Below, in pieces: positions 2,786 to 62,560 of a stretch of 64,000 nt of DNA (its first letter is position 1; each line of letters starts with the position of its first letter). This DNA comes from Escherichia coli 042 (lineage in GTDB: Bacteria; Pseudomonadota; Gammaproteobacteria; Enterobacterales; Enterobacteriaceae), in NCBI RefSeq assembly GCF_000027125.1, contig NC_017626.1; one strand, 5' to 3'. The notes beneath the pieces are model-generated. The model searched no databases and was not told the origin of the DNA. It saw nothing but the letters and a program-made list of their open reading frames with translations. Both the position numbers and the translations under genes were made by a program.

Positions 2786-2855
2786 AATTGAAGTCTTAAG
2801 GTTCACTTAATCTCTGACGCGCATACTCTCCTCCAGGTTAACGGAGGAGAGTGCA

Positions 2856-2945
2856 ATGAAAAACCGTGTTTATGAAAGTTTAACTACCGTGTTCAGCGTG
2901 CTGGTGGTCAGCAGCTTTCTTTATATCTGGTTTGCCACGTACTGA
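2856..2945 (+). CDS. pmrR: 29-aa membrane peptide PmrR-like (not in the supplied ORF track)
   Basis: Manual translation of atg at 2856 gives MKNRVYESLTTVFSVLVVSSFLYIWFATY then TGA. Hydrophobic single-TM peptide located between proP and basS, convergently overlapping the basS 3' end; preceded by hairpin ctctcctcc-aggttaac-ggaggagag. Confidence 0.6.
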   Translation: MKNRVYESLTTVFSVLVVSSFLYIWFATY

Positions 2946-4021
2946 TCTTTCTTCAGCCGTACCCAGGCCCGCGTGCCGGAAGTCTCTTGCCGGTTTTGCA
3001 GGAAAAACTGCCCGTGATGCAACTGTGTAATGCGGCTGACAATACTTAACCCCAGACCAATCCCGCCATAACGGCTGTCCATACGTACAAACGCTTTACT
3101 CAACTCCCCGCATTTACTCTCATCAATACCCGGTCCTTCATCTTCAACGGCCATGACCGCTCCGCCATCTTCTTGCAGCTTAATCATAATGTTGCTGCCT
3201 TGCGGGCTGTAACGATGGGCGTTTTCTACCAGGTTTCGCAATAACATCCGCAGCAGGGTTGCATCACCTTGAACGGTGATGTCGGCGGCGCTCTCTGGCA
3301 ATAGCAGGGTTTGCTGTCGCTGGTCGAGCATGGTACTGAGTTCGTCATACGAGGGGAGAATGACATCTTCCAGCAGTTTTACATGTTGATAATTACCGGA
3401 AGAAAATGACTGTCCGGCACGCGCCAGTTGCAGCAGCTGGGAGACACTCTCCATCATCTGATCAAGCCGTGCCACTAACGGTGCTACATCAATGTGATGC
3501 GTTTTCGCCAGCAGTTCCAGATGCAAACGCACCCCCGCCAGTGGCGTTCGCAGTTCGTGCGCGACGTCAGCGGTAAACAACCTTTCGTTATCCAGCGTGC
3601 TGGTCAGGCGACTGACCAGATCGTTCAACGCCGAAACCACCGCTTCGATTTCGAGGGTGGCGCTGTGAATGGCAATAGGCGTTAAGTTGTCGGCGGTGCG
3701 CGCTTCCAGCTCTTTTTGCAGCTCCGCCAGCGGCCGGGTGATGCGGCGTACCGCCTGATAGCAGATAAATAGCGTCAGGCTGACCATAAAGACGCCGGGG
3801 ACGATCAGGCTGGCGACCGCCTCGCGGATCTCACGCATGATGTGGCGATCGTTGTTGCGATTGTCGCGTAGCGCCTGCTCAAACAGCTGAATCTGCTCGG
3901 TACTTTCATGCCATAGCCAGAAGACGCTGATCAGCTCAAACACCAACAAAATGGCCCCAATGGTCAATATCAGCCGTTGGCGCAGCGATATTGGTCGGCG
4001 CAGAAAACGCATCAGATTCAA
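2921..4021 (-). CDS. basS: Sensor histidine kinase BasS/PmrB
   Basis: ORF with HisKA motif (FTADVAHELRTPLAG) and HATPase region (GGIGLGLSIV), directly downstream of basR. True start may be the Met three codons in (MRFLRRP, coordinate 4012). Confidence 0.92.
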   Translation of the reverse strand: MNLMRFLRRPISLRQRLILTIGAILLVFELISVFWLWHESTEQIQLFEQALRDNRNNDRHIMREIREAVASLIVPGVFMVSLTLFICYQAVRRITRPLAELQKELEARTADNLTPIAIHSATLEIEAVVSALNDLVSRLTSTLDNERLFTADVAHELRTPLAGVRLHLELLAKTHHIDVAPLVARLDQMMESVSQLLQLARAGQSFSSGNYQHVKLLEDVILPSYDELSTMLDQRQQTLLLPESAADITVQGDATLLRMLLRNLVENAHRYSPQGSNIMIKLQEDGGAVMAVEDEGPGIDESKCGELSKAFVRMDSRYGGIGLGLSIVSRITQLHHGQFFLQNRQETSGTRAWVRLKKDQYVANQI

Positions 4022-14017: not shown

Positions 14018-14664
14018 GGGGTTATCGCTTCCGGCGCTCTGGTTATCAAGCCAAAGCGCCGTAGCTGGCGGCAATGCAAGCGAGCGAGGAATATCACCGT
14101 CGTTAATGCGCCAAGCAGCGCGCAGAACATATCGGATTGCGTGTCCCACTGGTCGCCCTGGGTGCCGAGAAAATCATCCGCTCCCTGACCCATTGCCAGC
14201 GCCGCCCACCACTCGATTAATTCATACATCGCGCTTATCGCCAGCGCCACGCAACAGACCAGAAACGCCACCATTTTACGTCCGCGAACGTACATCCCGC
14301 GCACAAGGATCTCACGTGCCACCAGTGCAGGCACCAGCCCCTGGAAAAAATGCCCCAGCTTGTCATACGGATTACGGCTCAACCCCAGCCATTCCTGCAC
14401 CTCAAAACCAACGGGGACTTTCGCGTAGGTGTATTGTCCGCCGACCATCAGGATGATGGCGTGAAAGAAAATGAGCGTATAGAGCAGCGGCGTTAACGGA
14501 TAACGTCTGGCGGTGGCAAGCAGTAGCGGCACGACAATAATCACCGGTGTCACTTCCATCAGCCAGGTGAGTTTGTCATGGGCCGAAATGCCGGTATAAA
14601 TCAGGATTAACGTTAGCGCCAGTGCGCCGGTGTTAAGAATTAACGGCTTGAGTGTGCGGGTCAT
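14014..14664 (-). CDS. yjdF: Inner-membrane protein YjdF (DUF2238)
   Basis: 216-aa multi-TM ORF beginning MTRTLKPLILNTGALALTLILIY. Its stop codon overlaps the melA stop; the last ~8 codons read antisense to the sequence immediately after melA. Confidence 0.85.
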   Translation of the reverse strand: MTRTLKPLILNTGALALTLILIYTGISAHDKLTWLMEVTPVIIVVPLLLATARRYPLTPLLYTLIFFHAIILMVGGQYTYAKVPVGFEVQEWLGLSRNPYDKLGHFFQGLVPALVAREILVRGMYVRGRKMVAFLVCCVALAISAMYELIEWWAALAMGQGADDFLGTQGDQWDTQSDMFCALLGALTTVIFLARLHCRQLRRFGLITRAPEAITP

Positions 14665-14786
14665 GGTGAGTTCGCAAGTCAGGGAAAATACTGACTATTC
14701 ACCAGCAAGCGTGAAATTACAATCGTAAAAGAGGTGGCCCAGGGGGATCACCTGGCAGCATGCTGCCAGGCGCTGGGCCGAAGAGG

Positions 14787-16433
14787 TTACTTAGTGCAGT
14801 TCGCGCACTGTTTGTTGACGATTTGCTGGAAGAAGTCGTTACCTTTGTCATCGACCAGGATAAACGCCGGGAAATCTTCTACTTCGATTTTCCAGATAGC
14901 TTCCATACCCAGCTCTGGATAAGCGACGCATTCCAGATGCTTGATGCTCTGCTGCGCCAGTACCGCCGCCGGACCGCCGATGCTACCGAGGTAGAAGCCG
15001 CCGTGTTTATGACACGCGTCGGTAACCTGCTGACTGCGGTTACCTTTCGCCAGCATGATCATGCTGCCGCCGTGGGATTGCAGCAGATCCACGTAGGAGT
15101 CCATACGACCTGCGGTAGTTGGGCCAAGTGAACCTGATGGATAACCGGCAGGGGTTTTCGCCGGACCCGCGTAGTAGATCGGGTGATCTTTGATGTACTG
15201 CGGAAGTTCTTTACCGGCGTCAATCAGCTCTTTCAGCTTGGCGTGTGCAATATCTCGACCCACAATAATGGTGCCGGTGAGCGACAAACGAGTGGAAACC
15301 GGATATTGCGAAAGCTGGGCGAGGATCTCTTTCATCGGGCGGTTAAGGTCGACCTTCACCGCTTCGCCTTCACCGGCCTGACGCAGTTCTTGTGGAATGT
15401 ACTGGCCTGGATTGTGTTCCAGTTTTTCGATCCAGATACCTTCGCGGTTGATTTTCGCTTTAATGTTACGGTCAGCGGAGCAGGAGACGCCCATGCCTAC
15501 CGGGCAGGATGCGCCGTGACGTGGCAGACGGATAACGCGAATGTCGTGCGCGAAGTATTTACCGCCAAACTGCGCGCCAAGACCGAGTTTCTGGGCCTCT
15601 TCCAGCAGTTCCTGTTCCAGCTGGACATCGCGGAACGCCTGACCATGTTCGTTCCCTTCCGTCGGCAGCTCATCATAATAGTGAGCGCTTGCTAACTTGA
15701 CGGTTTTCAGGTTGGTTTCCGCAGACGTACCGCCAATCACAAACGCGATATGGTACGGCGGGCAGGCTGCCGTACCGAGGGTACGCATTTTCTCAACGAG
15801 GAAGTTTTTCAGTTTGCCGGGAGTCAGCAGAGCTTTGGTTTCCTGGTAGAGATAGGTTTTGTTGGCAGAGCCGCCGCCTTTAGCGACACAGAGGAATTTG
15901 TACTCATCGCCATCTACCGCGTACAGGTCGATTTGCGCAGGCAGGTTAGTGCCGGTGTTGACCTCTTTGTACATGTCCAGCGCCGCATTCTGTGAATAGC
16001 GCAGGTTATCTTCGATATAGGTGTTATAGACGCCTTTCGACAGCGCTTCTTCATCACCGCCGCCGGTCCACACGCGCTGACCTTTTTTACCGACGATGAT
16101 CGCGGTGCCGGTGTCCTGGCAGGTCGGCAGCACGCCTTTGGCGGCGATTTCGGAGTTTCTTAAGAATTGCAGCGCCACGTACTTGTCGTTTTCGCTGGCT
16201 TCTGGATCTTGAAGAATAGCCGCGACCTGTTTCTGGTGTGCCGGGCGGAGCATGAAAGAAGCGTCGTGAAAGGCTTGCTGCGCCAGCAGAGTCAGGGCTT
16301 CTGGTTCCACTTTCAGGATGGTTTCACCGTCGAAGTCGGCAACGCTAACGTAATCGGAAGTGAGTAGATAGTATTCGGTATTGTCTTTCCCCATCGGGAA
16401 AGGTGCCTGGTAGATAAAGGGTTTGTTTGACAT
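14787..16433 (-). CDS. fumB: Class I fumarate hydratase FumB (anaerobic, Fe-S)
   Basis: 548 aa; [31 protein letters not shown]; upstream of and co-oriented with dcuB. Confidence 0.95.
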
Positions 16434-39992: not shown

Positions 39993-42900
39993 TCAGAAGG
40001 TCACATTCAGCGTGGCCTGACTGTTATAACCTTCAGCGCTGCTGCCGCTGACGCTGTGGGCATAACCGGCCTGAACGCCCAGGGTGATATTTTCCCGGAC
40101 ACGGGCTTCCAGTCCGGCCTGCAGATCCAGTGAAGTGCCATTCTGTGAGGGAGAGAACGTCATCCCGCTGCCTGCGGTGGAGGTCCCCACACGCATATCA
40201 CCCCGGGAGCTGAAGGTGCGGATAACGGAAGGCTGTACCCACCAGTTCACCGGCAGTTCACGCACACTGTGTTTTGCACTGTCACGCAGGGGGGCACGGG
40301 ATGAGGTGCCTTCACCAAAGGTCATATCGTTGTGGCTGCCCAGACGGAAACCGGCACGCACATGTTGTGCACTGCCATGCCCGAACTTCACATAACCGGC
40401 GTTGTCCTTACCGTCATCCAGCGAAAGCCCCTGCCAGGTGTACTGCAGCCGTGGCTCCAGCATCAGGTTGTCAGTAATACTGAAGGGCAGACCGGTTTCC
40501 AGTGAGCCCAGCCAGCCCCAGCCCCGTGCGCGGAAGTCGTTATTGCCCGATGACGCTTTCATACTGTGGCGGGTTCCCTGTGCCACAATGTCAGCCCACA
40601 GGCCGGAGGAGGTGTGTGTCAGGTTCATATATCCGCCCAGGCTGCCGGCATCATCCCGGACCGTGCCGGCGCGGGAGCCGTCATCATCCTTAACATCAAC
40701 GGAAGAATGGCCTGCAGCACCATACACTCCTGTCGTCAGTGACATACCGGCGACCTCTGTTCTGAGCAGGTCACCCTCCAGACGGACGAAGCCATAGCTG
40801 CCGCTGCTTTCCGGCGTGGCCCCACGGGCAATACCGCCGTTGTTATCGTGACCGAGATGGCCGCCCTGAATGCTGAGACGGACGCTGTTATTTTCACCGT
40901 TTACACCGGTCTGATGGCTGCGTGAGCCTGCCAGAATCCGGTCATAGTCCATTGCCTGTGTCAGCATGGAGGCGTACAGGGGGACTTCAGCACGATAACG
41001 TTCTTCACTGCGCAGATACCAGCTCTCATCACTGTCCCGGTTGAGGGTGTAGTTAAAGGCCCCGGCCTGCAGCATATTCCCCTGGACAAAAGCCCCTTCC
41101 TCCGTGGTGGCACCGTTAATGGCCTCAACCACCTGAATACCCTTACCGGTGGTCGCCAGCCCCGTACCACTGTTGCCGGCGTTCACCAGATTCAGGATGG
41201 TTTTTCCGGTTGCCCTGCCACCGTCAATGACCAGTCTGTCAGCATTGTTCTGCGCCATATCCGGGCGTACACGCAGGCTGATGGTGCCATTCTGCCCGTT
41301 CAGGTTTTTCACCTGCAGGGTTGCCGGTACGAACTTCCCTGTGCGGGTGGAGGTGAAATGAATCTGTCCGGCATGGCTGAGGTCATCCACCACCGACTGC
41401 ACCGTGGCGTTATCAGGGATATTCCAGGTGGCACCGGATGTCAGGGTGACATTCGTGGGGTCAATGGCACCGTTCAGCACTGTGCTGCCGGTCAGCTTCA
41501 GGGCCGTGCCGCGCTGAGCGATGACATCCGTGGTGACGGTACTGTCGTTCAGCGTCAGCGTGCCTTCATTCAGGTTGACGGTTTTCTGGGTGAGTGTGGT
41601 GTTGCTGACAGTGAGTGTGCCACTTCCTGATTTTTCCACCCTGCCGTTACCGGTAAGAGCGCCTCCCTGCAGGAGTGCATCACCTTCACGGATGGTCAGG
41701 GTATCGTTATTCACCGTTTTCCCGGAAAGGGTAAGCGTGGCACCGTTATTCAGCGTGGTGGTGCCCGCCAGCGAGCCCCCTCTGGCAGTGAACAGTCCGC
41801 CATTTACCGTGGTATCCGTGGCCGTATCACCGGCGTTCAGCGTGAATGAACTGCCTTTTTCCAGCATCAGGGCATCCGCCTGACCGCCCCCGATACGGAA
41901 TGCCGTTCCGTCGCTCCGGGTACCACTGACAGCGGCCCCGGAATCGGCCAGCAGTACACCGCCATTCCCCATGGATACGGTGGTGGCGGCACCACCGTTG
42001 CGGACATCCAGCGTTCCGCCATCATCCACACGGGTATTAGTGGCTGTGTGTCCGCTCAGCACATCCAGACGTCCGCCATTTTCCAGTACGACATTATCAG
42101 CCTTACCCGCCAGAACGGAGAATGCTCCCAGGCGGTTTGTGCCGGTGACGGTTGCAGCTGTGCTGGTAACCAGTGCACCTCCCGTGTTCTGGGTGACATC
42201 AGACGCTTTACCGCCGGCATTCACCTGCAGCTTTCCTTTCTGGTTGATGGTGGTATGCGCGGTAGTTCCTCCTTCCTTAATCACCTGCCAGCCCCCCTCG
42301 TTAATTACCGTGTTCAGCGCAAGTCCGTATTTGTGCACATACTGGTTTCCTCCCTCCAGCCGGGTGTTATGTGCCTCGCCGTGTACCGTCTGGTCACCGC
42401 CGGCGTAAATGAGGGTGTCCCGTGCCATCCCCGAAGACCAGATAACCTGCCGGCCATTTTTGTTGATGGTGGTGGATTCAGCCGTCCCTCCGACCATCTG
42501 ACCGCTGGACACATTTTCAGACTCCGGACCACCTTCTGCACCGGTGTTGACGATGGTTCCGGTTGCCTGCCCGCCATGTTTAATGGTCTGGTAGCCAGAC
42601 TGGTTAATCACCGTTCCGGATGCACTGCCGCCTGCATGTATCCATTGTTCACCACCGTTAAGGACAGTACCGTAAGCCTGCCCGCGCAGATTCTGTCCTC
42701 CACCGGCACTGATAACCGTATCCGTGGCACTGCCACCTGCCATGACATCCTGCAGACCGTTTGCGGTGACCGTGGTGTTTCTGGCAGTGCCACCCCGGGC
42801 TATCTGCTGACCGCCGGTGTTGTCATCAGAGTCCGGCCCCAGCTCAAGCCCGGTACTGACAGTCACGCCATCAGCTGTTCCGGATACAAACTGGTTGTCA

Positions 42901-43112
42901 TGGTTTACCAGTGTTCCGCCATTCACTGTTTCACCCGGGTGCACAACGATGTCAGCAGCCAGCACCGGGAGTGACGTGACTGCGGCAAGAGACAGTGCAA
43001 CCGCCACACCGCCACGTTTACCCCGTGCGCGGGCCAGTTCGGAGGCAACCACGAAAGCGCCCGTAATGTGATTCCATACCAGCCTGTAGCAGGTATTCAG
43101 ATGTCGTTTCAT
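39993..43112 (-). CDS. flu: Antigen 43 (Flu) self-associating autotransporter adhesin
   Basis: ORF 39993-43118; from the third Met (MKRHLNTCYRLVWNH...) gives 1039 aa; extended signal peptide, beta-helical passenger repeats, C-terminal beta-barrel ending ...ATLNVTF. Confidence 0.93.
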   Translation of the reverse strand: MKRHLNTCYRLVWNHITGAFVVASELARARGKRGGVAVALSLAAVTSLPVLAADIVVHPGETVNGGTLVNHDNQFVSGTADGVTVSTGLELGPDSDDNTGGQQIARGGTARNTTVTANGLQDVMAGGSATDTVISAGGGQNLRGQAYGTVLNGGEQWIHAGGSASGTVINQSGYQTIKHGGQATGTIVNTGAEGGPESENVSSGQMVGGTAESTTINKNGRQVIWSSGMARDTLIYAGGDQTVHGEAHNTRLEGGNQYVHKYGLALNTVINEGGWQVIKEGGTTAHTTINQKGKLQVNAGGKASDVTQNTGGALVTSTAATVTGTNRLGAFSVLAGKADNVVLENGGRLDVLSGHTATNTRVDDGGTLDVRNGGAATTVSMGNGGVLLADSGAAVSGTRSDGTAFRIGGGQADALMLEKGSSFTLNAGDTATDTTVNGGLFTARGGSLAGTTTLNNGATLTLSGKTVNNDTLTIREGDALLQGGALTGNGRVEKSGSGTLTVSNTTLTQKTVNLNEGTLTLNDSTVTTDVIAQRGTALKLTGSTVLNGAIDPTNVTLTSGATWNIPDNATVQSVVDDLSHAGQIHFTSTRTGKFVPATLQVKNLNGQNGTISLRVRPDMAQNNADRLVIDGGRATGKTILNLVNAGNSGTGLATTGKGIQVVEAINGATTEEGAFVQGNMLQAGAFNYTLNRDSDESWYLRSEERYRAEVPLYASMLTQAMDYDRILAGSRSHQTGVNGENNSVRLSIQGGHLGHDNNGGIARGATPESSGSYGFVRLEGDLLRTEVAGMSLTTGVYGAAGHSSVDVKDDDGSRAGTVRDDAGSLGGYMNLTHTSSGLWADIVAQGTRHSMKASSGNNDFRARGWGWLGSLETGLPFSITDNLMLEPRLQYTWQGLSLDDGKDNAGYVKFGHGSAQHVRAGFRLGSHNDMTFGEGTSSRAPLRDSAKHSVRELPVNWWVQPSVIRTFSSRGDMRVGTSTAGSGMTFSPSQNGTSLDLQAGLEARVRENITLGVQAGYAHSVSGSSAEGYNSQATLNVTF

Positions 43113-43304
43113 CAGCATTTCCTTAATCAGAGTGAGGGTGAATAAAAAAGCCGGTATCCACAGATGTGGATACCGGCAGGTAAAGGGTTACAGTGCCGGA
43201 GGTCCGGCTGACGGAAGTTTCTGACGTGTGGCTCTGTTGTTCCCTGAATCTCATGTCTGTGTGTATCTGCGCACGTTGCTAACAGGAGTTATTATTAGCA
43301 TGAC

Positions 43305-43340
43305 GATCGATATAAACGATCGATAAAATAGGTATCGATC
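43305..43340. promoter_or_regulatory. Ag43 phase-variation switch: three clustered GATC sites (Dam/OxyR)
   Basis: GATC at 43305, 43318 and 43337 within gacGATCgatataaacGATCgataaaataggtatcGATCg, ~190-230 bp upstream of the flu start codon. Confidence 0.7.
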
Positions 43341-43445
43341 GTTTTATTCTATTATCAGGCTATTGCACGGACAAGAGAGACAGTAACGAAAACAGCGCTT
43401 TTGTGAGCAGACTCAGAGGCAGGGAGGACATCATCCACAACAGGT

Positions 43446-52176: not shown

Positions 52177-52368
52177 TTATTCTGTTTCTTCCCGGGGTTC
52201 GGGTTTGAATTTTCCCAGGAAGTTGTACATCGGTCGCATGCAGGGATGCGGATAGCCGTCCCGCATAAACACCACCCGGGTTTCCTCAACACTGGTCACG
52301 GTGACAAGCGCACCATGATCGTCTCTGTATCGCTGATTGATTTTCGGTAATGGAATATCTTCTGACAT
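52177..52368 (-). CDS. Small hypothetical protein (63 aa)
   Basis: Short ORF with plausible start, between the island regulator-like gene and the T6SS promoter; weak support. Confidence 0.3.
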   Translation of the reverse strand: MSEDIPLPKINQRYRDDHGALVTVTSVEETRVVFMRDGYPHPCMRPMYNFLGKFKPEPREETE

Positions 52369-52745
52369 AGATTTCAGAACGGTAACAGTTAACTAAATTT
52401 TCATGTGGTAGCACTGAATCAGGAGTCTCTGCCTCCTGATGTGTTTTGTTAATCTTCTGTTTTTACTAGAAATCCCCTCACTCCTTCTTTCATTGCATTT
52501 TGTTGGGCCCTTCCTCCATATCTTTCCCGCTTTCCAGAAATCACGTCAATGCTGCTGAAACTTTACTCATTGTGATTTTCAATGACTGAAATCAAGAAAA
52601 TACAGTGTTTATGTTAACTGGCTGTATCAAAAGTGTTTTGTGGAATAATTTTCTGTATTTTTACATTAACAATGGTTATAAGCTTTGAATATTCATTATT
52701 TTGCGACATTCCATAGAATAAAGTCCTGATTATTTGCATTATATC

Positions 52746-52798
52746 GATCGATGTATCTGTTATATTGAGATTTTTCAGATCTTCGTCCTATAATGATC
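52746..52798 (+). promoter_or_regulatory. T6SS promoter candidate: TATAAT -10 flanked by three GATC sites in an AT-rich Fur-box-like context
   Basis: GATC at 52746, 52778 and 52795; TATAAT at 52789-52794 abuts the third GATC; ataatgatcaaaatta resembles the Fur-box core; ~80 nt upstream of tssB. Confidence 0.6.
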
Positions 52799-52874
52799 AA
52801 AATTAAATCAGTGCACAAGGGGAGGCATCTGCGGTGATGGAACCCCTGAGATGCAGGTTTCACAGGAGAGAGCC

Positions 52875-53372
52875 ATGAGCAGTTCGTTTCAGAATGAAAT
52901 CCCGAAAGCAAGGGTAAATCTGAAATTAGACCTACATACGGGTGGTGGGCAGAAGAAAGTGGAGCTTCCGCTCAAACTTCTGGTTGCCGGTGATTTCAGT
53001 AACGGACAGGAAGAGCGTCCACTGTCAGAGCGTGTAAAAACGGATATTAATAAAAACAATTTTAATGATGTTCTGGCAGATATCTCCCCGTCTGTACATC
53101 TGAATGTGGAGAACACGCTTGCCGGTGATGGCTCTGAAGAGAGCATCAGCCTGACTTTCCGCAATATGAACGATTTCACGCCAGAGCAGGTCGCCCGACA
53201 GATTCCCCGTCTTAAAGCCATGCTGGCCATGCGTAGCCTTCTGCGGGACCTGAAAGCCAATCTGCTGGATAACGTGACTTTCCGTAAAGAGCTGGAAAAA
53301 ATTCTGCGTGACCCGGCACTGAGTCAGACGCTGCGTGATGAACTGCGTGCACTGGTGCCGGAAAAGGCGTGA
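52875..53372 (+). CDS. tssB: T6SS contractile sheath small subunit TssB
   Basis: ORF 52851-53372; from the internal Met, MSSSFQNEIPKARVNLKLDL...VELPLKLLVAGDF, a typical TssB/VipA N-terminus; RBS aggagag upstream. Confidence 0.93.
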   Translation: MSSSFQNEIPKARVNLKLDLHTGGGQKKVELPLKLLVAGDFSNGQEERPLSERVKTDINKNNFNDVLADISPSVHLNVENTLAGDGSEESISLTFRNMNDFTPEQVARQIPRLKAMLAMRSLLRDLKANLLDNVTFRKELEKILRDPALSQTLRDELRALVPEKA

Positions 53373-59330: not shown

Positions 59331-61997
59331 GTGAATAACATGGAAAATTCGGCAGCCCTGTTACGTCGTCTTAATCATTACTGTGCCCGTGCACTGGAAG
59401 GCGCAGCCTCCCTTTGCCAGACCCGGGCCCATGCGGAAATCACCCCGGAGCACTGGTTACTGAAACTGCTGGAGCAGGGGGAAGGAGACCTTACCGTGCT
59501 GGGCAGGCGTTATGACTGGGATATGGACGCGATATGGCAGTCGCTGCTCGGCTGGCTGGATAACCAGCCCCGTAGCGTACGCAGTCGCCCGCAGCTTGCG
59601 CAGTCCCTGAATGCTCTGCTGAAACAGGCCTGGATGGTGGCCTCATTACAGGGAGAAGAACATATCCGCAGCGTGCATCTGCTGGGTGCCCTGACGGAAA
59701 ATCCGCACCTGGTTCGCTGTGACGGGCTGTGGCCTCTGCTGACACTGAGTCAGAGCCAGTTGCAGCGTCTGTCCCCGCTGCTGGATGCGCAGTCTGATGA
59801 GTGTCCGGAGACGTTACAGGATGCAGAGCCTGTGCTGCCTCAGGGAGACAGTGTGACCTTTATCGGGCGCCCTGTCGGTGCGGATACGGCAGGTATACCG
59901 TCAGGTGACCTGCCGCCGGTGTTACAGGGTGCGCTGGATAAATTCACCCGGGACATCACGGCCAGCGCGAGAGAGGGGAAAATTGACCCGGTATCGGGAC
60001 GCGATACGGAAATCCGTCAGATGGTGGATATTCTCTCCCGCCGTCGCAAGAATAACCCGATTCTGGTGGGGGACCCCGGTGTGGGGAAAACGGCTCTGGT
60101 GGAAGGGCTCGCCCTGCGTATTGTGGAAGGTAACGTACCAGAATCTCTCAGACCCGTCACCCTGCGCACCCTTGACCTCGGCCTGCTGCAGGCCGGTGCC
60201 GGCGTGAAAGGTGAATTTGAACAGCGTCTGAAAAACGTGATTGATGCCGTGCAGCTGTCACCGGCTCCTGTACTGCTGTTTATAGATGAAGCCCATACCC
60301 TTATCGGTGCCGGTAATCAGGCCGGTGGCGCGGATGCGGCCAACCTGCTGAAGCCTGCGCTGGCGCGAGGCGAACTGCGCACCATTGCTGCCACCACCTG
60401 GTCTGAGTACAAACAATACCTGGAACGTGACGCGGCTCTGGAGCGGCGTTTTCAGATGGTCAAAGTGGACGAGCCGGATGATGAGACGGCCTGTCTGATG
60501 CTGCGCTCCCTGAAATCCCGTTATGCGGAACATCATAACGTGCATATCACCGATGAGGCAGTACGTGCTGCCGTCACACTCTCGCGCCGTTATCTGACAG
60601 AACGTCAGTTACCGGACAAGGCCGTTGACCTGCTTGATACTGCTGCTGCCCGTGTGCGGATGAGCCTCGACACGGTGCCGGAACAGCTGACCCGAATCCG
60701 TTCACAGCTCGCTTCCCTCGGTATGGAAAAACAGGCACTGCTGGAAGATATTGCCGTTGGTCATCAGAATCACGGCGAACGCCTGTCTGCCATTGAGCAG
60801 GAAGAGAACGTGCTGATGACAGCACGTGATGACCTGGAGCAGCAGTACGCCCGTGAGTGCGAACTCACCGGTGAGTTACTTGAAAGCCGCAGCGATATTT
60901 CCCGCCAGAGTGAGACACATCACCTGCAGCAGGCACTGCACGACATTCAGCAGAATCAGCCCCTGCTCAGTGTGGATGTTGACGTACGCACCGTTGCCGG
61001 TGTGGTCGCGGACTGGACCGGAGTGCCGTTATCCTCACTGATGAAGGATGAACAGACGGAACTGCTGCATCTGGAAAAGGATATCGGCAGACGGGTGGTC
61101 GGACAGGACGTGGCACTGGAATCCATTGCACAGCGTCTGCGTGCGGCGAAAACGGGTCTGACATCCGGTAACGGCCCCCAGGAGGTGTTCCTGCTGGTCG
61201 GCCCCAGTGGTGTGGGAAAAACCGAAACGGCACTGGCGCTGGCAGATGTGATGTACGGCGGCGAAAAATCACTGATTACCATCAATCTGTCGGAATATCA
61301 GGAGCCCCATACGGTTTCCCAGCTTAAGGGTTCACCGCCCGGGTACGTGGGATACGGTCAGGGGGGTATTCTGACGGAAGCTGTACGTAAGCGCCCTTAC
61401 AGCGTGGTGCTGCTGGATGAAGTGGAAAAGGCCCACCGGGATGTGCTGAATCTGTTCTACCAGGTGTTTGACCGGGGCTTTATGCGCGACGGTGAGGGGC
61501 GTGAAATTGACTTCCGTAATACGGTCATTCTGATGACCTCCAATCTGGGCAGTGACCTTCTGATGCAGCAACTGAGCGAAAAGCCGGAGACAACGGAATC
61601 GGAGCTGCATGAGCTTATCCGTCCACTGCTGCGCGACCACTTCCAGCCAGCACTGCTTGCCCGTTTCCAGACCGTGATTTACCGTCCGCTGACACCGTCT
61701 GCTATGCGCACCATTGTGGAGATGAAGCTTGCACAGGTCTGCGAACGCCTGCACTGCCATTATGGGCTGAGCACATCGGTTGATGAACGTGTGTACGATG
61801 CCCTGACATCCGCCTGCCTGCTGCCGGATACGGGCGCCCGGAATGTGGAGAGTCTGCTGAACCAGCAACTGCTGCCGGTACTGAGCCGGCAGTTGCTGAG
61901 CCATATGGCCGCGAAGCAGAAACCGCAGGCGCTGGCTCTGGCATGGAGTGACGAAGACGGTATGGTGATTGAGCTGCGGCAGGAATGCGCGTTATGA
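59331..61997 (+). CDS. clpV: T6SS AAA+ ATPase ClpV (TssH)
   Basis: 888 aa; two AAA+ modules with Walker A GDPGVGKT and GPSGVGKT; ClpB-like N-domain. Confidence 0.95.
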
Positions 61998-62560
61998 CCG
62001 GCTATGGCAGAAATCAGGACGCTGGCGCAGGTAAAAATCAAAGGGAAGAAGGCTCATTGCGGTTACTGACGCCGGGAGAGATTGCGCTGGCGAGGCTGGT
62101 ATTCAGGTTGACAATCCCTTATGAAAAGGTCTGGATCCACCATGACAGTTTTCTGCCTTTTGGTCTTCAGAATAAGCAAACTGCCATGCCCCCCGATGGT
62201 AAGATTTATTTCCGTGAGCACTATCGGGATGATTATTCACTCAGCGTTCCCTTTTATCAGCATATGTTTATTCATGAAATGGCGCATGTCTGGCAGCGTG
62301 AAAAGGGAATGAATGTCATCGGTCGGGGGATGTTCAGTTGGGCGGTGAATTACCGTTATGTTCTGGACGGGCGTCTGTTAAGCGAATATCCCATGGAGCA
62401 GCAGGCACAAATTATTGCTGATCATTTTACTTTGCAGGCTGAAGGATACGGGACATGGTGTGATATGAGAAGGGACGGTGATATCACACTGGACGGAAAT
62501 ATGTCTGAGTATGTTATTCGCAGCCTGTATACCAGCACGTTGCGGGGGTTCCCATGGTAA
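61994..62560 (+). CDS. HExxH-motif protein (putative Zn-metallopeptidase-like), T6SS-associated, function unknown
   Basis: ORF 61985-62560; ATGA overlap with the clpV stop suggests translational coupling; motif FIHEMAHVWQ; no signal peptide. Confidence 0.55.
   Translation: MTGYGRNQDAGAGKNQREEGSLRLLTPGEIALARLVFRLTIPYEKVWIHHDSFLPFGLQNKQTAMPPDGKIYFREHYRDDYSLSVPFYQHMFIHEMAHVWQREKGMNVIGRGMFSWAVNYRYVLDGRLLSEYPMEQQAQIIADHFTLQAEGYGTWCDMRRDGDITLDGNMSEYVIRSLYTSTLRGFPW

Follow-up and report, generated by a model that had tools for sequence, protein, structure and literature searches.

The closest described system is Psci1, the promoter of the sci1 (T6SS-1) gene cluster of EAEC, which has been dissected experimentally in strain 17-2. 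Brunet et al. (2011; PMC3145626) described three GATC sites spread over 53 nt, each within a restriction palindrome, and a Fur box (fur2) upstream of them, and found that a sci1-lacZ fusion was derepressed in fur transposon and deletion mutants and by an iron chelator. The promoter and each isolated Fur box titrated Fur in vivo (FURTA) and shifted with Fur in vitro in a metal-dependent manner, and Fur competed with RNA polymerase, reducing its binding. Fur protected GATC-I, and neither GATC-II nor GATC-III, from Dam in vitro and in vivo (the in vivo methylation assays used a plasmid-borne promoter), and Dam methylation lowered the affinity of fur1 for Fur. The -10 and -35 elements and the transcription start site (TSS) were “putative” (BProm) in that study, and TSS mapping for the sci1 promoter was reported neither there nor by Taillefer et al. 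(2026; PMC13262931).

The 2011 study had seen no subpopulations. Taillefer et al. described a reversible equilibrium of ~60% ON and 40% OFF in the wild type at low iron, with reversion within 15 to 20 generations. Chromosomal A>G changes at G1 or G3 lowered expression, the G3 and the G123 mutant were uniformly OFF, and Fur-box mutants were ON even with iron; the authors proposed that the ON/OFF ratio is tuned by promoter architecture. As published, the switch holds Fe-Fur on F1 (over the -10 hexamer and GATC-I) and on F2 when iron is present, leaving the promoter OFF and GATC-I unmethylated. When iron is scarce, Fur comes off, transcription begins and Dam methylates GATC-I. Because methylation lowers the affinity of Fur for F1, a methylated GATC-I hinders rebinding at that box and stabilizes the ON state, and a return to OFF would, in the authors' proposal, require both replication, with its hemimethylated DNA, and iron.

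The window studied here is the whole 64-kb stretch of Escherichia coli 042 DNA presented above. Its first-pass annotation called the sequence upstream of tssB consistent with the sci1 Fur/Dam switch, and the correspondence proved stronger than that wording, since primers, box oligonucleotides and coordinates identify the published locus itself. Psci1, the principal sigma-70 promoter that drives EAEC sci1, almost certainly has its core at positions 52725 to 52807 and works as the published epigenetic switch. This switch is already known in full molecular detail, and the finding is correct and not new.

Comparison with the characterized promoter, which the annotation had suggested as a check, gave agreement in published oligonucleotides, GATC spacings, restriction sites and coordinates (Table 1). 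All the oligonucleotides of Brunet et al. 2011, four amplification primers and two Fur-box inserts, match the window without mismatch, and the published EAEC 042 fragment, 4852298 to 4852892, equals window positions 52298 to 52892 plus 4,800,000; by this offset the window almost certainly corresponds to positions 4,800,001 to 4,864,000 of 042. The GATC spacings of 429, 32 and 17 nt are the Sau3AI fragment sizes of Fig. S1 in that paper, the diagnostic palindromes at the three promoter sites are all present, and the Fur-box scores of 13/19 for fur1 and 11/19 for fur2 equal the paper's figures. As published, GATC-I lies in fur1 on the 3′ side of the -10 hexamer, and GATC-II and GATC-III lie on either side of the -35 element. 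We considered an indel between strains for the end fragments of Fig. S1 (22/96 nt, against 19/98 computed) and for the SspI fragments (384/396 + 212, against 393 + 202), but dismissed it, since every internal distance is in agreement and the sizes given in the paper are inconsistent among themselves.

The bottom-strand mutagenic oligonucleotides of Taillefer et al. 2026 likewise equal the window except at their designed changes, with one further mismatch, at 52805, in oligonucleotide 3-G1. The 1-nt indels in the printed top-strand oligonucleotides (S3 Table) were taken as typographical, since the complementary bottom-strand oligonucleotides match. The 2026 oligonucleotides carry a T at 52761 that is allele-specific and absent in strain 55989. 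Primers, boxes, GATC number and spacing, palindromes, the downstream gene (sciH/tssB, EC042_4524) and coordinates are the same, with no detectable difference. The experiments were done in strain 17-2 and the window is from strain 042, and we infer that the two promoters are also equivalent beyond the bases covered by the oligonucleotides.

Table 1. Features of the tssB upstream region, with published primers, inserts and mutations placed on the window
Feature	Position	Strand	Remarks
DUF4222 gene, 63 aa	52177-52368	-	ORF; final gene of the island's conserved backbone; divergent from tssB
pT7 primer pair	ends at 52298 and 52892		Exact match
Prom sci1-5	52309-52333		Exact match
Distal GATC (“GATC-dis”, Brunet 2011 Fig. 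S1)	52317-52320		Inside the DUF4222 CDS; next GATC, 429 nt upstream of GATC-III
Intergenic region, 506 bp, 36% G+C	52369-52874	+	“sci1 promoter region” of the literature; published amplicon primers at 52298/52309 and 52892
Hairpin, 8-bp, conserved, followed by GTGTTTTGTT	52418-52440	+	Terminator-like on the + strand, judged from sequence
Distal box insert (Table S1 oligonucleotide)	52722-52746		Exact match
Distal Fur box fur2 / F2, CCTGATTATTTGCATTATA	52725-52743	+	11/19 to consensus on the + strand; upstream of the -35
Mutation F2, TTA>GGG	52739-52741		2026 study (PMC13262931), 17-2 chromosome
GATC-III / G3	52746-52749		Within PvuI (CGATCG) and BspDI (ATCGAT); 2 nt downstream of F2
Mutation G3, A>G	52747		2026 study (PMC13262931), 17-2 chromosome
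Predicted -35, TTGAGA	52765-52770	+	Consensus scan
GATC-II / G2	52778-52781		In the promoter spacer; within BglII (AGATCT) and Hpy188I (TCAGA)
Mutation G2, A>G	52779		2026 study (PMC13262931), 17-2 chromosome
Proximal box insert (Table S1 oligonucleotide)	52786-52811		Exact match
Predicted -10 hexamer, TATAAT	52789-52794	+	Invariant in 48 variants
Proximal Fur box fur1 / F1, TATAATGATCAAAATTAAA	52789-52807	+	13/19; overlaps the -10, contains GATC-I
GATC-I / G1	52795-52798		Within BclI (TGATCA); Fur blocks its methylation and its methylation lowers Fur affinity (published)
Mutation G1, A>G	52796		2026 study (PMC13262931), 17-2 chromosome
Expected transcription start	52801-52803	+	Inferred from the -10 position only
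Mutation F1, TTA>GGG	52803-52805		2026 study (PMC13262931), 17-2 chromosome
End of homology between T6SS-linked and cdiBCAI-linked promoter copies	52811-52812		~+10; alignments of both classes
Prom sci1-3	52866-52892	-	Exact match
tssB (sciH, EC042_4524)	52875-53372	+	NCBIfam TIGR03358 at 1.4e-49; first gene of the sci1 cluster

The sequence between the DUF4222 gene and the tssB start codon (ATG) is poorer in G+C than the window as a whole (~50.5%), and it holds three GATC sites and no others, within 53 nt in all. These three sites had been recognized in the first-pass annotation, as had the contact of one of them with a TATAAT hexamer and a Fur-box-like core, ataatgatcaaaatta, and each of these observations holds. 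The third GATC directly adjoins the hexamer inside the Fur-like 19-mer, 81 nt upstream of tssB; the 19-mer shares 13 of its 19 bases with the Fur consensus GATAATGATAATCATTATC, and TATAATGATC occurs a single time in the 64 kb. A consensus scan pairs TTGAGA with TATAAT across an 18-nt spacer (11 of 12 matches), and the 5′ untranslated region expected from this predicted promoter is only ~73 nt. The same annotation spoke of a ~450-bp AT-rich leader; the AT-rich region is there, but it is intergenic DNA, and its greater part, upstream of the promoter, is not leader.

The genes on either side agree with the published setting. The gene in the DUF4222 position is annotated as a DUF4222 domain protein in E. 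coli 55989, and a DUF4222 gene was found upstream of the promoter at every related locus examined. Downstream, NCBIfam equivalog models identify TssB (TIGR03358), TssC (TIGR03355) and TssK (TIGR03353), and the 55989 annotation gives the sci1 order tssB-tssC-tssK-tssL-tagL-hcp-tssH, so that tssB (sciH) of a sci1-type T6SS-1 cluster comes directly after the promoter. Scanned in full against Rfam, the window matched only the agn43 leader (RF00124) and STnc630, with no hit in the region upstream of tssB. We took two small minus-strand ORFs of the intergenic region, at 52614-52739 and 52696-52911, to be spurious.

Of 5426 complete E. coli genomes searched by megablast, 1378 have the 506-bp region. 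At least 99% identity was found in 41 records (55989, O104:H4 outbreak strains and others) and 100% identity in none, and the nearest RefSeq complete genomes (55989 and O104:H4) differ by one to three bases, all outside the named elements. We also compared 48 variants, all of them distinct, that came from E. coli genomes, from E. albertii and from gut metagenomes. They were gathered by means of a 19-nt anchor that lies 350 nt upstream of the GATC sites, which kept the choice of sequences independent of those sites. Across these variants 46% of the columns are invariant. The 15-nt run CTATAATGATCAAAA (52788-52802) is unchanged in all 48, fur1 is invariant at 16 of its 19 positions, no variant lacks GATC-I, 46 have GATC-II and 46 have GATC-III, and the 32/17 spacing is retained in almost all. 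Elsewhere the promoter varies: fur2 is weakly conserved, scoring 8 to 10 of 19 to the Fur consensus in most alleles, the -35 element reads TTGAGA or TTGCTG, and in many alleles, including some in each of the two promoter classes described below, a fourth GATC stands where the fur2 position has its 5′ edge, 23 nt upstream of GATC-III. When species-representative genomes were scanned with the backbone anchor, nothing but E. albertii and a single MAG contig came up, which essentially restricts the module to Escherichia.

Most of the related regions do not precede a T6SS cluster. The majority class, ~77% identical to the region studied here, has no tssB downstream; its homology takes in an ECs1377-family gene, a 234-nt hypothetical gene, the DUF4222 gene and the promoter, and stops at ~52811, roughly +10. 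Only two downstream classes were found, one entering the tssB leader (209 of 5426 complete E. coli genomes, ~4%) and the other a cdi leader that precedes a cdiBCAI locus or its remnants (1290 of 5426, ~24%). In the latter, the leader is ~230 nt long, and after it come a ShlB/FhaC-family gene, one for a lysine acyltransferase and one for a filamentous haemagglutinin-type protein that has an Ntox25 toxin domain; this is the cdiBCAI system of class IV in Halvorsen et al. 2021 (PMC8510554). Of the 1290 genomes with the cdi-linked form, 493 match 80% or more of a query comprising promoter, leader and ~0.7 kb of cdiB 5′ coding sequence, and in the remainder IS elements, integrase remnants or deletions cut the gene short.

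In the class IV locus of STEC_O31 the promoter is homologous DNA (~77 to 80% identity over ~440 bp), in which the TATAATGATCAAAA core and the three GATC sites are identical and keep the same 32/17 spacing. It differs in leading, through its ~230-nt leader, to cdiB and not to tssB, in having TTGCTG as its -35 and in scoring only 8 to 10 of 19 to the Fur consensus at the F2 position. The -35 of the cdi copy is weaker, and a simple scan calls no plus-strand promoter there. The stem of the hairpin in Table 1 is kept in both promoter classes, and its homologue is the annealing site of the Hayes-lab cdi cloning primer ZR258, the 3′ part of which is exact at the homologue of window positions 52419 to 52441, 325 nt upstream of GATC-III. 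Halvorsen et al. found that deleting the predicted native promoter abolished inhibition, and their paper mentions neither Fur nor Dam. A literature search for work linking cdiB or cdiBCAI with Fur or GATC found nothing relevant, which is not proof that such a link is unpublished; the only part of the present analysis that may be new is that class IV CDI loci have this promoter cassette in common with the T6SS.

Because the homology continues through the promoter and is followed by two different weapons, the promoter appears to be a backbone-borne cassette placed before two contact-dependent systems. It is possible, though we would stop short of calling it probable, that the Fur/Dam switch is not T6SS-specific and belongs to the outward end of the island backbone. 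In that case one would expect iron to repress class IV CDI by way of Fur, and cells to fall into Dam-dependent ON and OFF states like those of sci1, and the two weapons would have one epigenetic control cassette in common.

How much of the arrangement calls for a regulatory explanation depends on what chance would supply. The GATC/Fur pattern is only mildly improbable on sequence statistics alone: three GATC sites fell within 53 nt in 3.8% of the sequences simulated for the 506-bp region under a Markov-1 model, the window contains six such clusters where ~2 are expected (P ~0.02), four of the five others resembling ordinary coding-type sequence, and 17 window positions match the Fur consensus at 13 or more of 19. 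Chance features of AT-rich, horizontally acquired DNA with no regulatory role could produce figures of this kind, and yet we give that account practically no credence, for binding, protection and mutational data are published for the exact sequence, the published point mutants contradict it, and the core is invariant in 48 variants that differ at ~20% of other positions. Conservation and identity with an experimentally dissected promoter raise the pattern above chance. A further question is posed by the upstream elements. The strong G3 and F2 phenotypes of 2026 are unexplained by the original GATC-I-centered model, and since G3 lies 2 nt from F2, the simplest reading, from geometry, is that G3 may antagonize Fur at that adjacent box, though in the 2011 assays (PMC3145626) Fur did not protect G3. 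The switch could instead be real and partly independent of Fur, with GATC-III and GATC-II acting through a different methylation-sensitive factor, for example SeqA, H-NS, Lrp or OxyR, or by a direct effect of methylation on RNA polymerase, and F2 an allele-specific add-on. Such a division of labor would suit G3 mutants that are homogeneously OFF even though Fur leaves GATC-II and GATC-III unprotected in vitro and in vivo, and an F2 that is poorly matched in most natural alleles while GATC-III is 96% conserved and the block around it (52734-52768) is among the best conserved between the two promoter classes. It is harder to square with the ON cells that F2 mutation yields even in iron-rich medium and with the ability of F2 DNA alone to titrate Fur and to shift with it; there are no reports of another factor, and we consider a partly non-Fur switch unlikely. 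The O104:H4 and ST131 literature yielded no usable site list when searched for published chromosomal methylome evidence of unmethylated GATC-I.

With the Fur/Dam switch retained as the preferred reading of the promoter's function, its evolutionary origin can be considered separately. The promoter may not have evolved for the T6SS at all, being instead the promoter that faces outward from the end of a mobile island backbone for which the T6SS is one of two alternative cargoes. The extent of the homology between T6SS- and cdiBCAI-linked copies, which spans backbone genes through the promoter and ends at ~+10, fits this history, as does the greater number of genomes with the cdi-linked form (1290, against 209 with the tssB-linked form, of 5426), whereas these data do not reveal the direction of transfer, a truncated or interrupted cdiB follows most cdi-linked copies, and the -35 differs by class (TTGAGA versus TTGCTG). 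We regard the balance for and against a backbone origin as even.

As it stands, the value of the finding is one of annotation, in that the window holds the reference example of Fur/Dam epigenetic control of a T6SS. Should class IV CDI come under the same cassette in a quarter of E. coli genomes, iron-gated, bet-hedging deployment of contact-dependent weapons would belong to the island backbone and not to one secretion system. Were that true for CDI, the natural allelic series of F2 strengths, fourth GATC sites and -35 variants would be a ready-made test of the 2026 proposal on promoter architecture.

The first-pass annotation had further credited the island with two separate GATC-based switches, Psci1 and that of Ag43. 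The Ag43 switch is there, its agn43 leader (43305-43340) having three GATC sites in 36 nt at a distance of 9.4 kb on the same island, but the count is incomplete, as the literature has a third, P4532. P4532 (Brunet, Bernard and Cascales 2020, J Bacteriol) is described as an internal promoter of the sci1 cluster that shares the architecture of Psci1, with a Fur box over a Dam site and the -10; it is a separate site, inside the cluster, with a single GATC. A candidate for P4532 in the window is the sequence ATTATTGCTGATCATTTTA at 62411-62429 (12/19, with TGATCA), 134 nt upstream of the ORF at 62554. With Psci1, agn43 and P4532, there are therefore three Dam-sensitive promoters in one island.

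The OxyR/Dam switch of agn43 resembles Psci1 in its three clustered GATC sites in a repressor-binding region, in the mutual exclusion of repressor and Dam, and in its heritable ON and OFF states; it differs in that the repressor is OxyR and not Fur, the sites lie downstream of the TSS, and switching is stochastic and not iron-gated. The Lrp/Dam switch of pap is alike in the competition between a regulator and Dam at promoter-proximal and promoter-distal GATC sites, and differs in using Lrp with PapI, in having two sets of sites ~100 bp apart, and in working by activation rather than simple occlusion. The feature that marks agn43- and pap-type switches, a GATC inside the regulator's own site, is found at Psci1 in GATC-I within fur1, where mutual exclusion of Fur and Dam has been published (PMC3145626).

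The promoter of the sci1 type VI secretion system (T6SS) cluster in Escherichia coli 042, Psci1, lies in DNA that is also found in front of contact-dependent inhibition genes. Comparing window 52371-52811 with loci L004-L010 and the metagenome loci L013-L081, we found about 77 to 80% identity, extending to about +10 of the promoter, with DNA at class IV cdiBCAI loci or their remnants. Among complete E. coli genomes, the cdi-linked arrangement (remnants included) occurred in 1290 of 5426, versus 209 of 5426 for the tssB-linked arrangement. The core formed by the -10 element, the proximal Fur box (fur1) and GATC-I, as well as all three GATC sites, was kept in tssB- and cdi-linked promoters alike. 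The cdiBCAI loci sharing this DNA feature Ntox25 and CdiC, and ZR258, a Hayes-lab cloning primer, anneals within the cdi-linked region homologous to the sci1 promoter DNA.

Upstream of the promoter, a hairpin whose stem is conserved in both promoter classes and whose loop is variable could serve as a read-through insulator for Psci1 or form part of the DUF4222 5' untranslated region. In a cdi-linked allele (L009), a simple consensus scan returned a minus-strand promoter-like pair at 15409-15438 (TTGACT, 18 nt, AATAAT; 10 of 12 positions), which overlaps the fur1/-10 region and is directed towards DUF4222. The plus-strand -35 hexamer of this allele, TTGCTG, was too weak to be called by the same simple scan, and the window allele has no minus-strand pair of the L009 type.

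Natural alleles vary at the distal Fur box (fur2). In many of them, belonging to both promoter classes, an additional, fourth GATC (AGATCT) lies 23 nt upstream of GATC-III. The 042/55989 allele lacks this site, yet its fur2 box comes closest to the Fur consensus (11 to 12 of 19 positions, versus 8 to 10 of 19). Position 52761 is T in the window and C in 55989 and seven other aligned E. coli alleles; the T is also carried by the 17-2 mutagenic oligonucleotides.

Features of the promoter region and of other sites in the window
Feature	Position	Strand	Details
STnc630, enterobacterial sRNA	2787-2952	+	Rfam RF02052, 181 bits, gathering-score match
agn43 coding sequence	39993-43118	minus	
agn43 regulatory leader	43305-43340	minus	three GATC in 36 nt (aacgatcgatacctattttatcgatcgtttatatcgatcgtc)
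8-bp hairpin	52418-52440	+	ATCAGGAG...CTCCTGAT, then GTGTTTTGTT; between DUF4222 start and promoter
Fourth GATC	homologue of about 52723-52726		5' edge of fur2 position; L002, L003, L004, L020, L022 and others
Fur-like 19-mer	62411-62429		ATTATTGCTGATCATTTTA; 12/19; GATC at 62420 within BclI site

Window positions 52298-52892 plus 4,800,000 reproduce the EAEC 042 coordinates printed in Brunet 2011 (PMC3145626), and because of this offset the window very probably represents 042 positions 4,800,001-4,864,000. No 100% identical copy of the promoter region was present among the RefSeq complete genomes searched. The published fragment measures 595 nt on the window, not 596; in Table S1 of that study the Bfur1 oligonucleotide corresponds to the distal box and Bfur2 to the proximal one, the reverse of the naming in its text; and the end-fragment and SspI sizes in its Fig. 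S1 differ by a few nucleotides from the window values. These small inconsistencies have no effect on the identification of the promoter.

At the island end of E. coli AH19K002 (L010), 5' and 3' fragments, of cdiB and of a VasL-domain (T6SS) gene respectively, are joined at 14309-15129, downstream of the promoter, with Qat and other defence genes following. The fusion resembles a deletion scar, suggesting that modules for CDI and T6SS have lain side by side at this end of the island.

An Rfam match elsewhere in the window, to STnc630, bears no relation to the Psci1 finding. Another, RF00124 (IS102 RNA) at 43137-43342, covers the GATC cluster of the agn43 leader, which is the classical OxyR/Dam switch and lies 9.4 kb from Psci1. 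In strain W24, the agn43-to-DUF4222 backbone also stands before a cdi locus. The Fur-like 19-mer lies inside an open reading frame (61985-62560), 134 nt upstream of another beginning at 62554, and is a candidate for P4532, the Fur/Dam promoter published as internal to the cluster.
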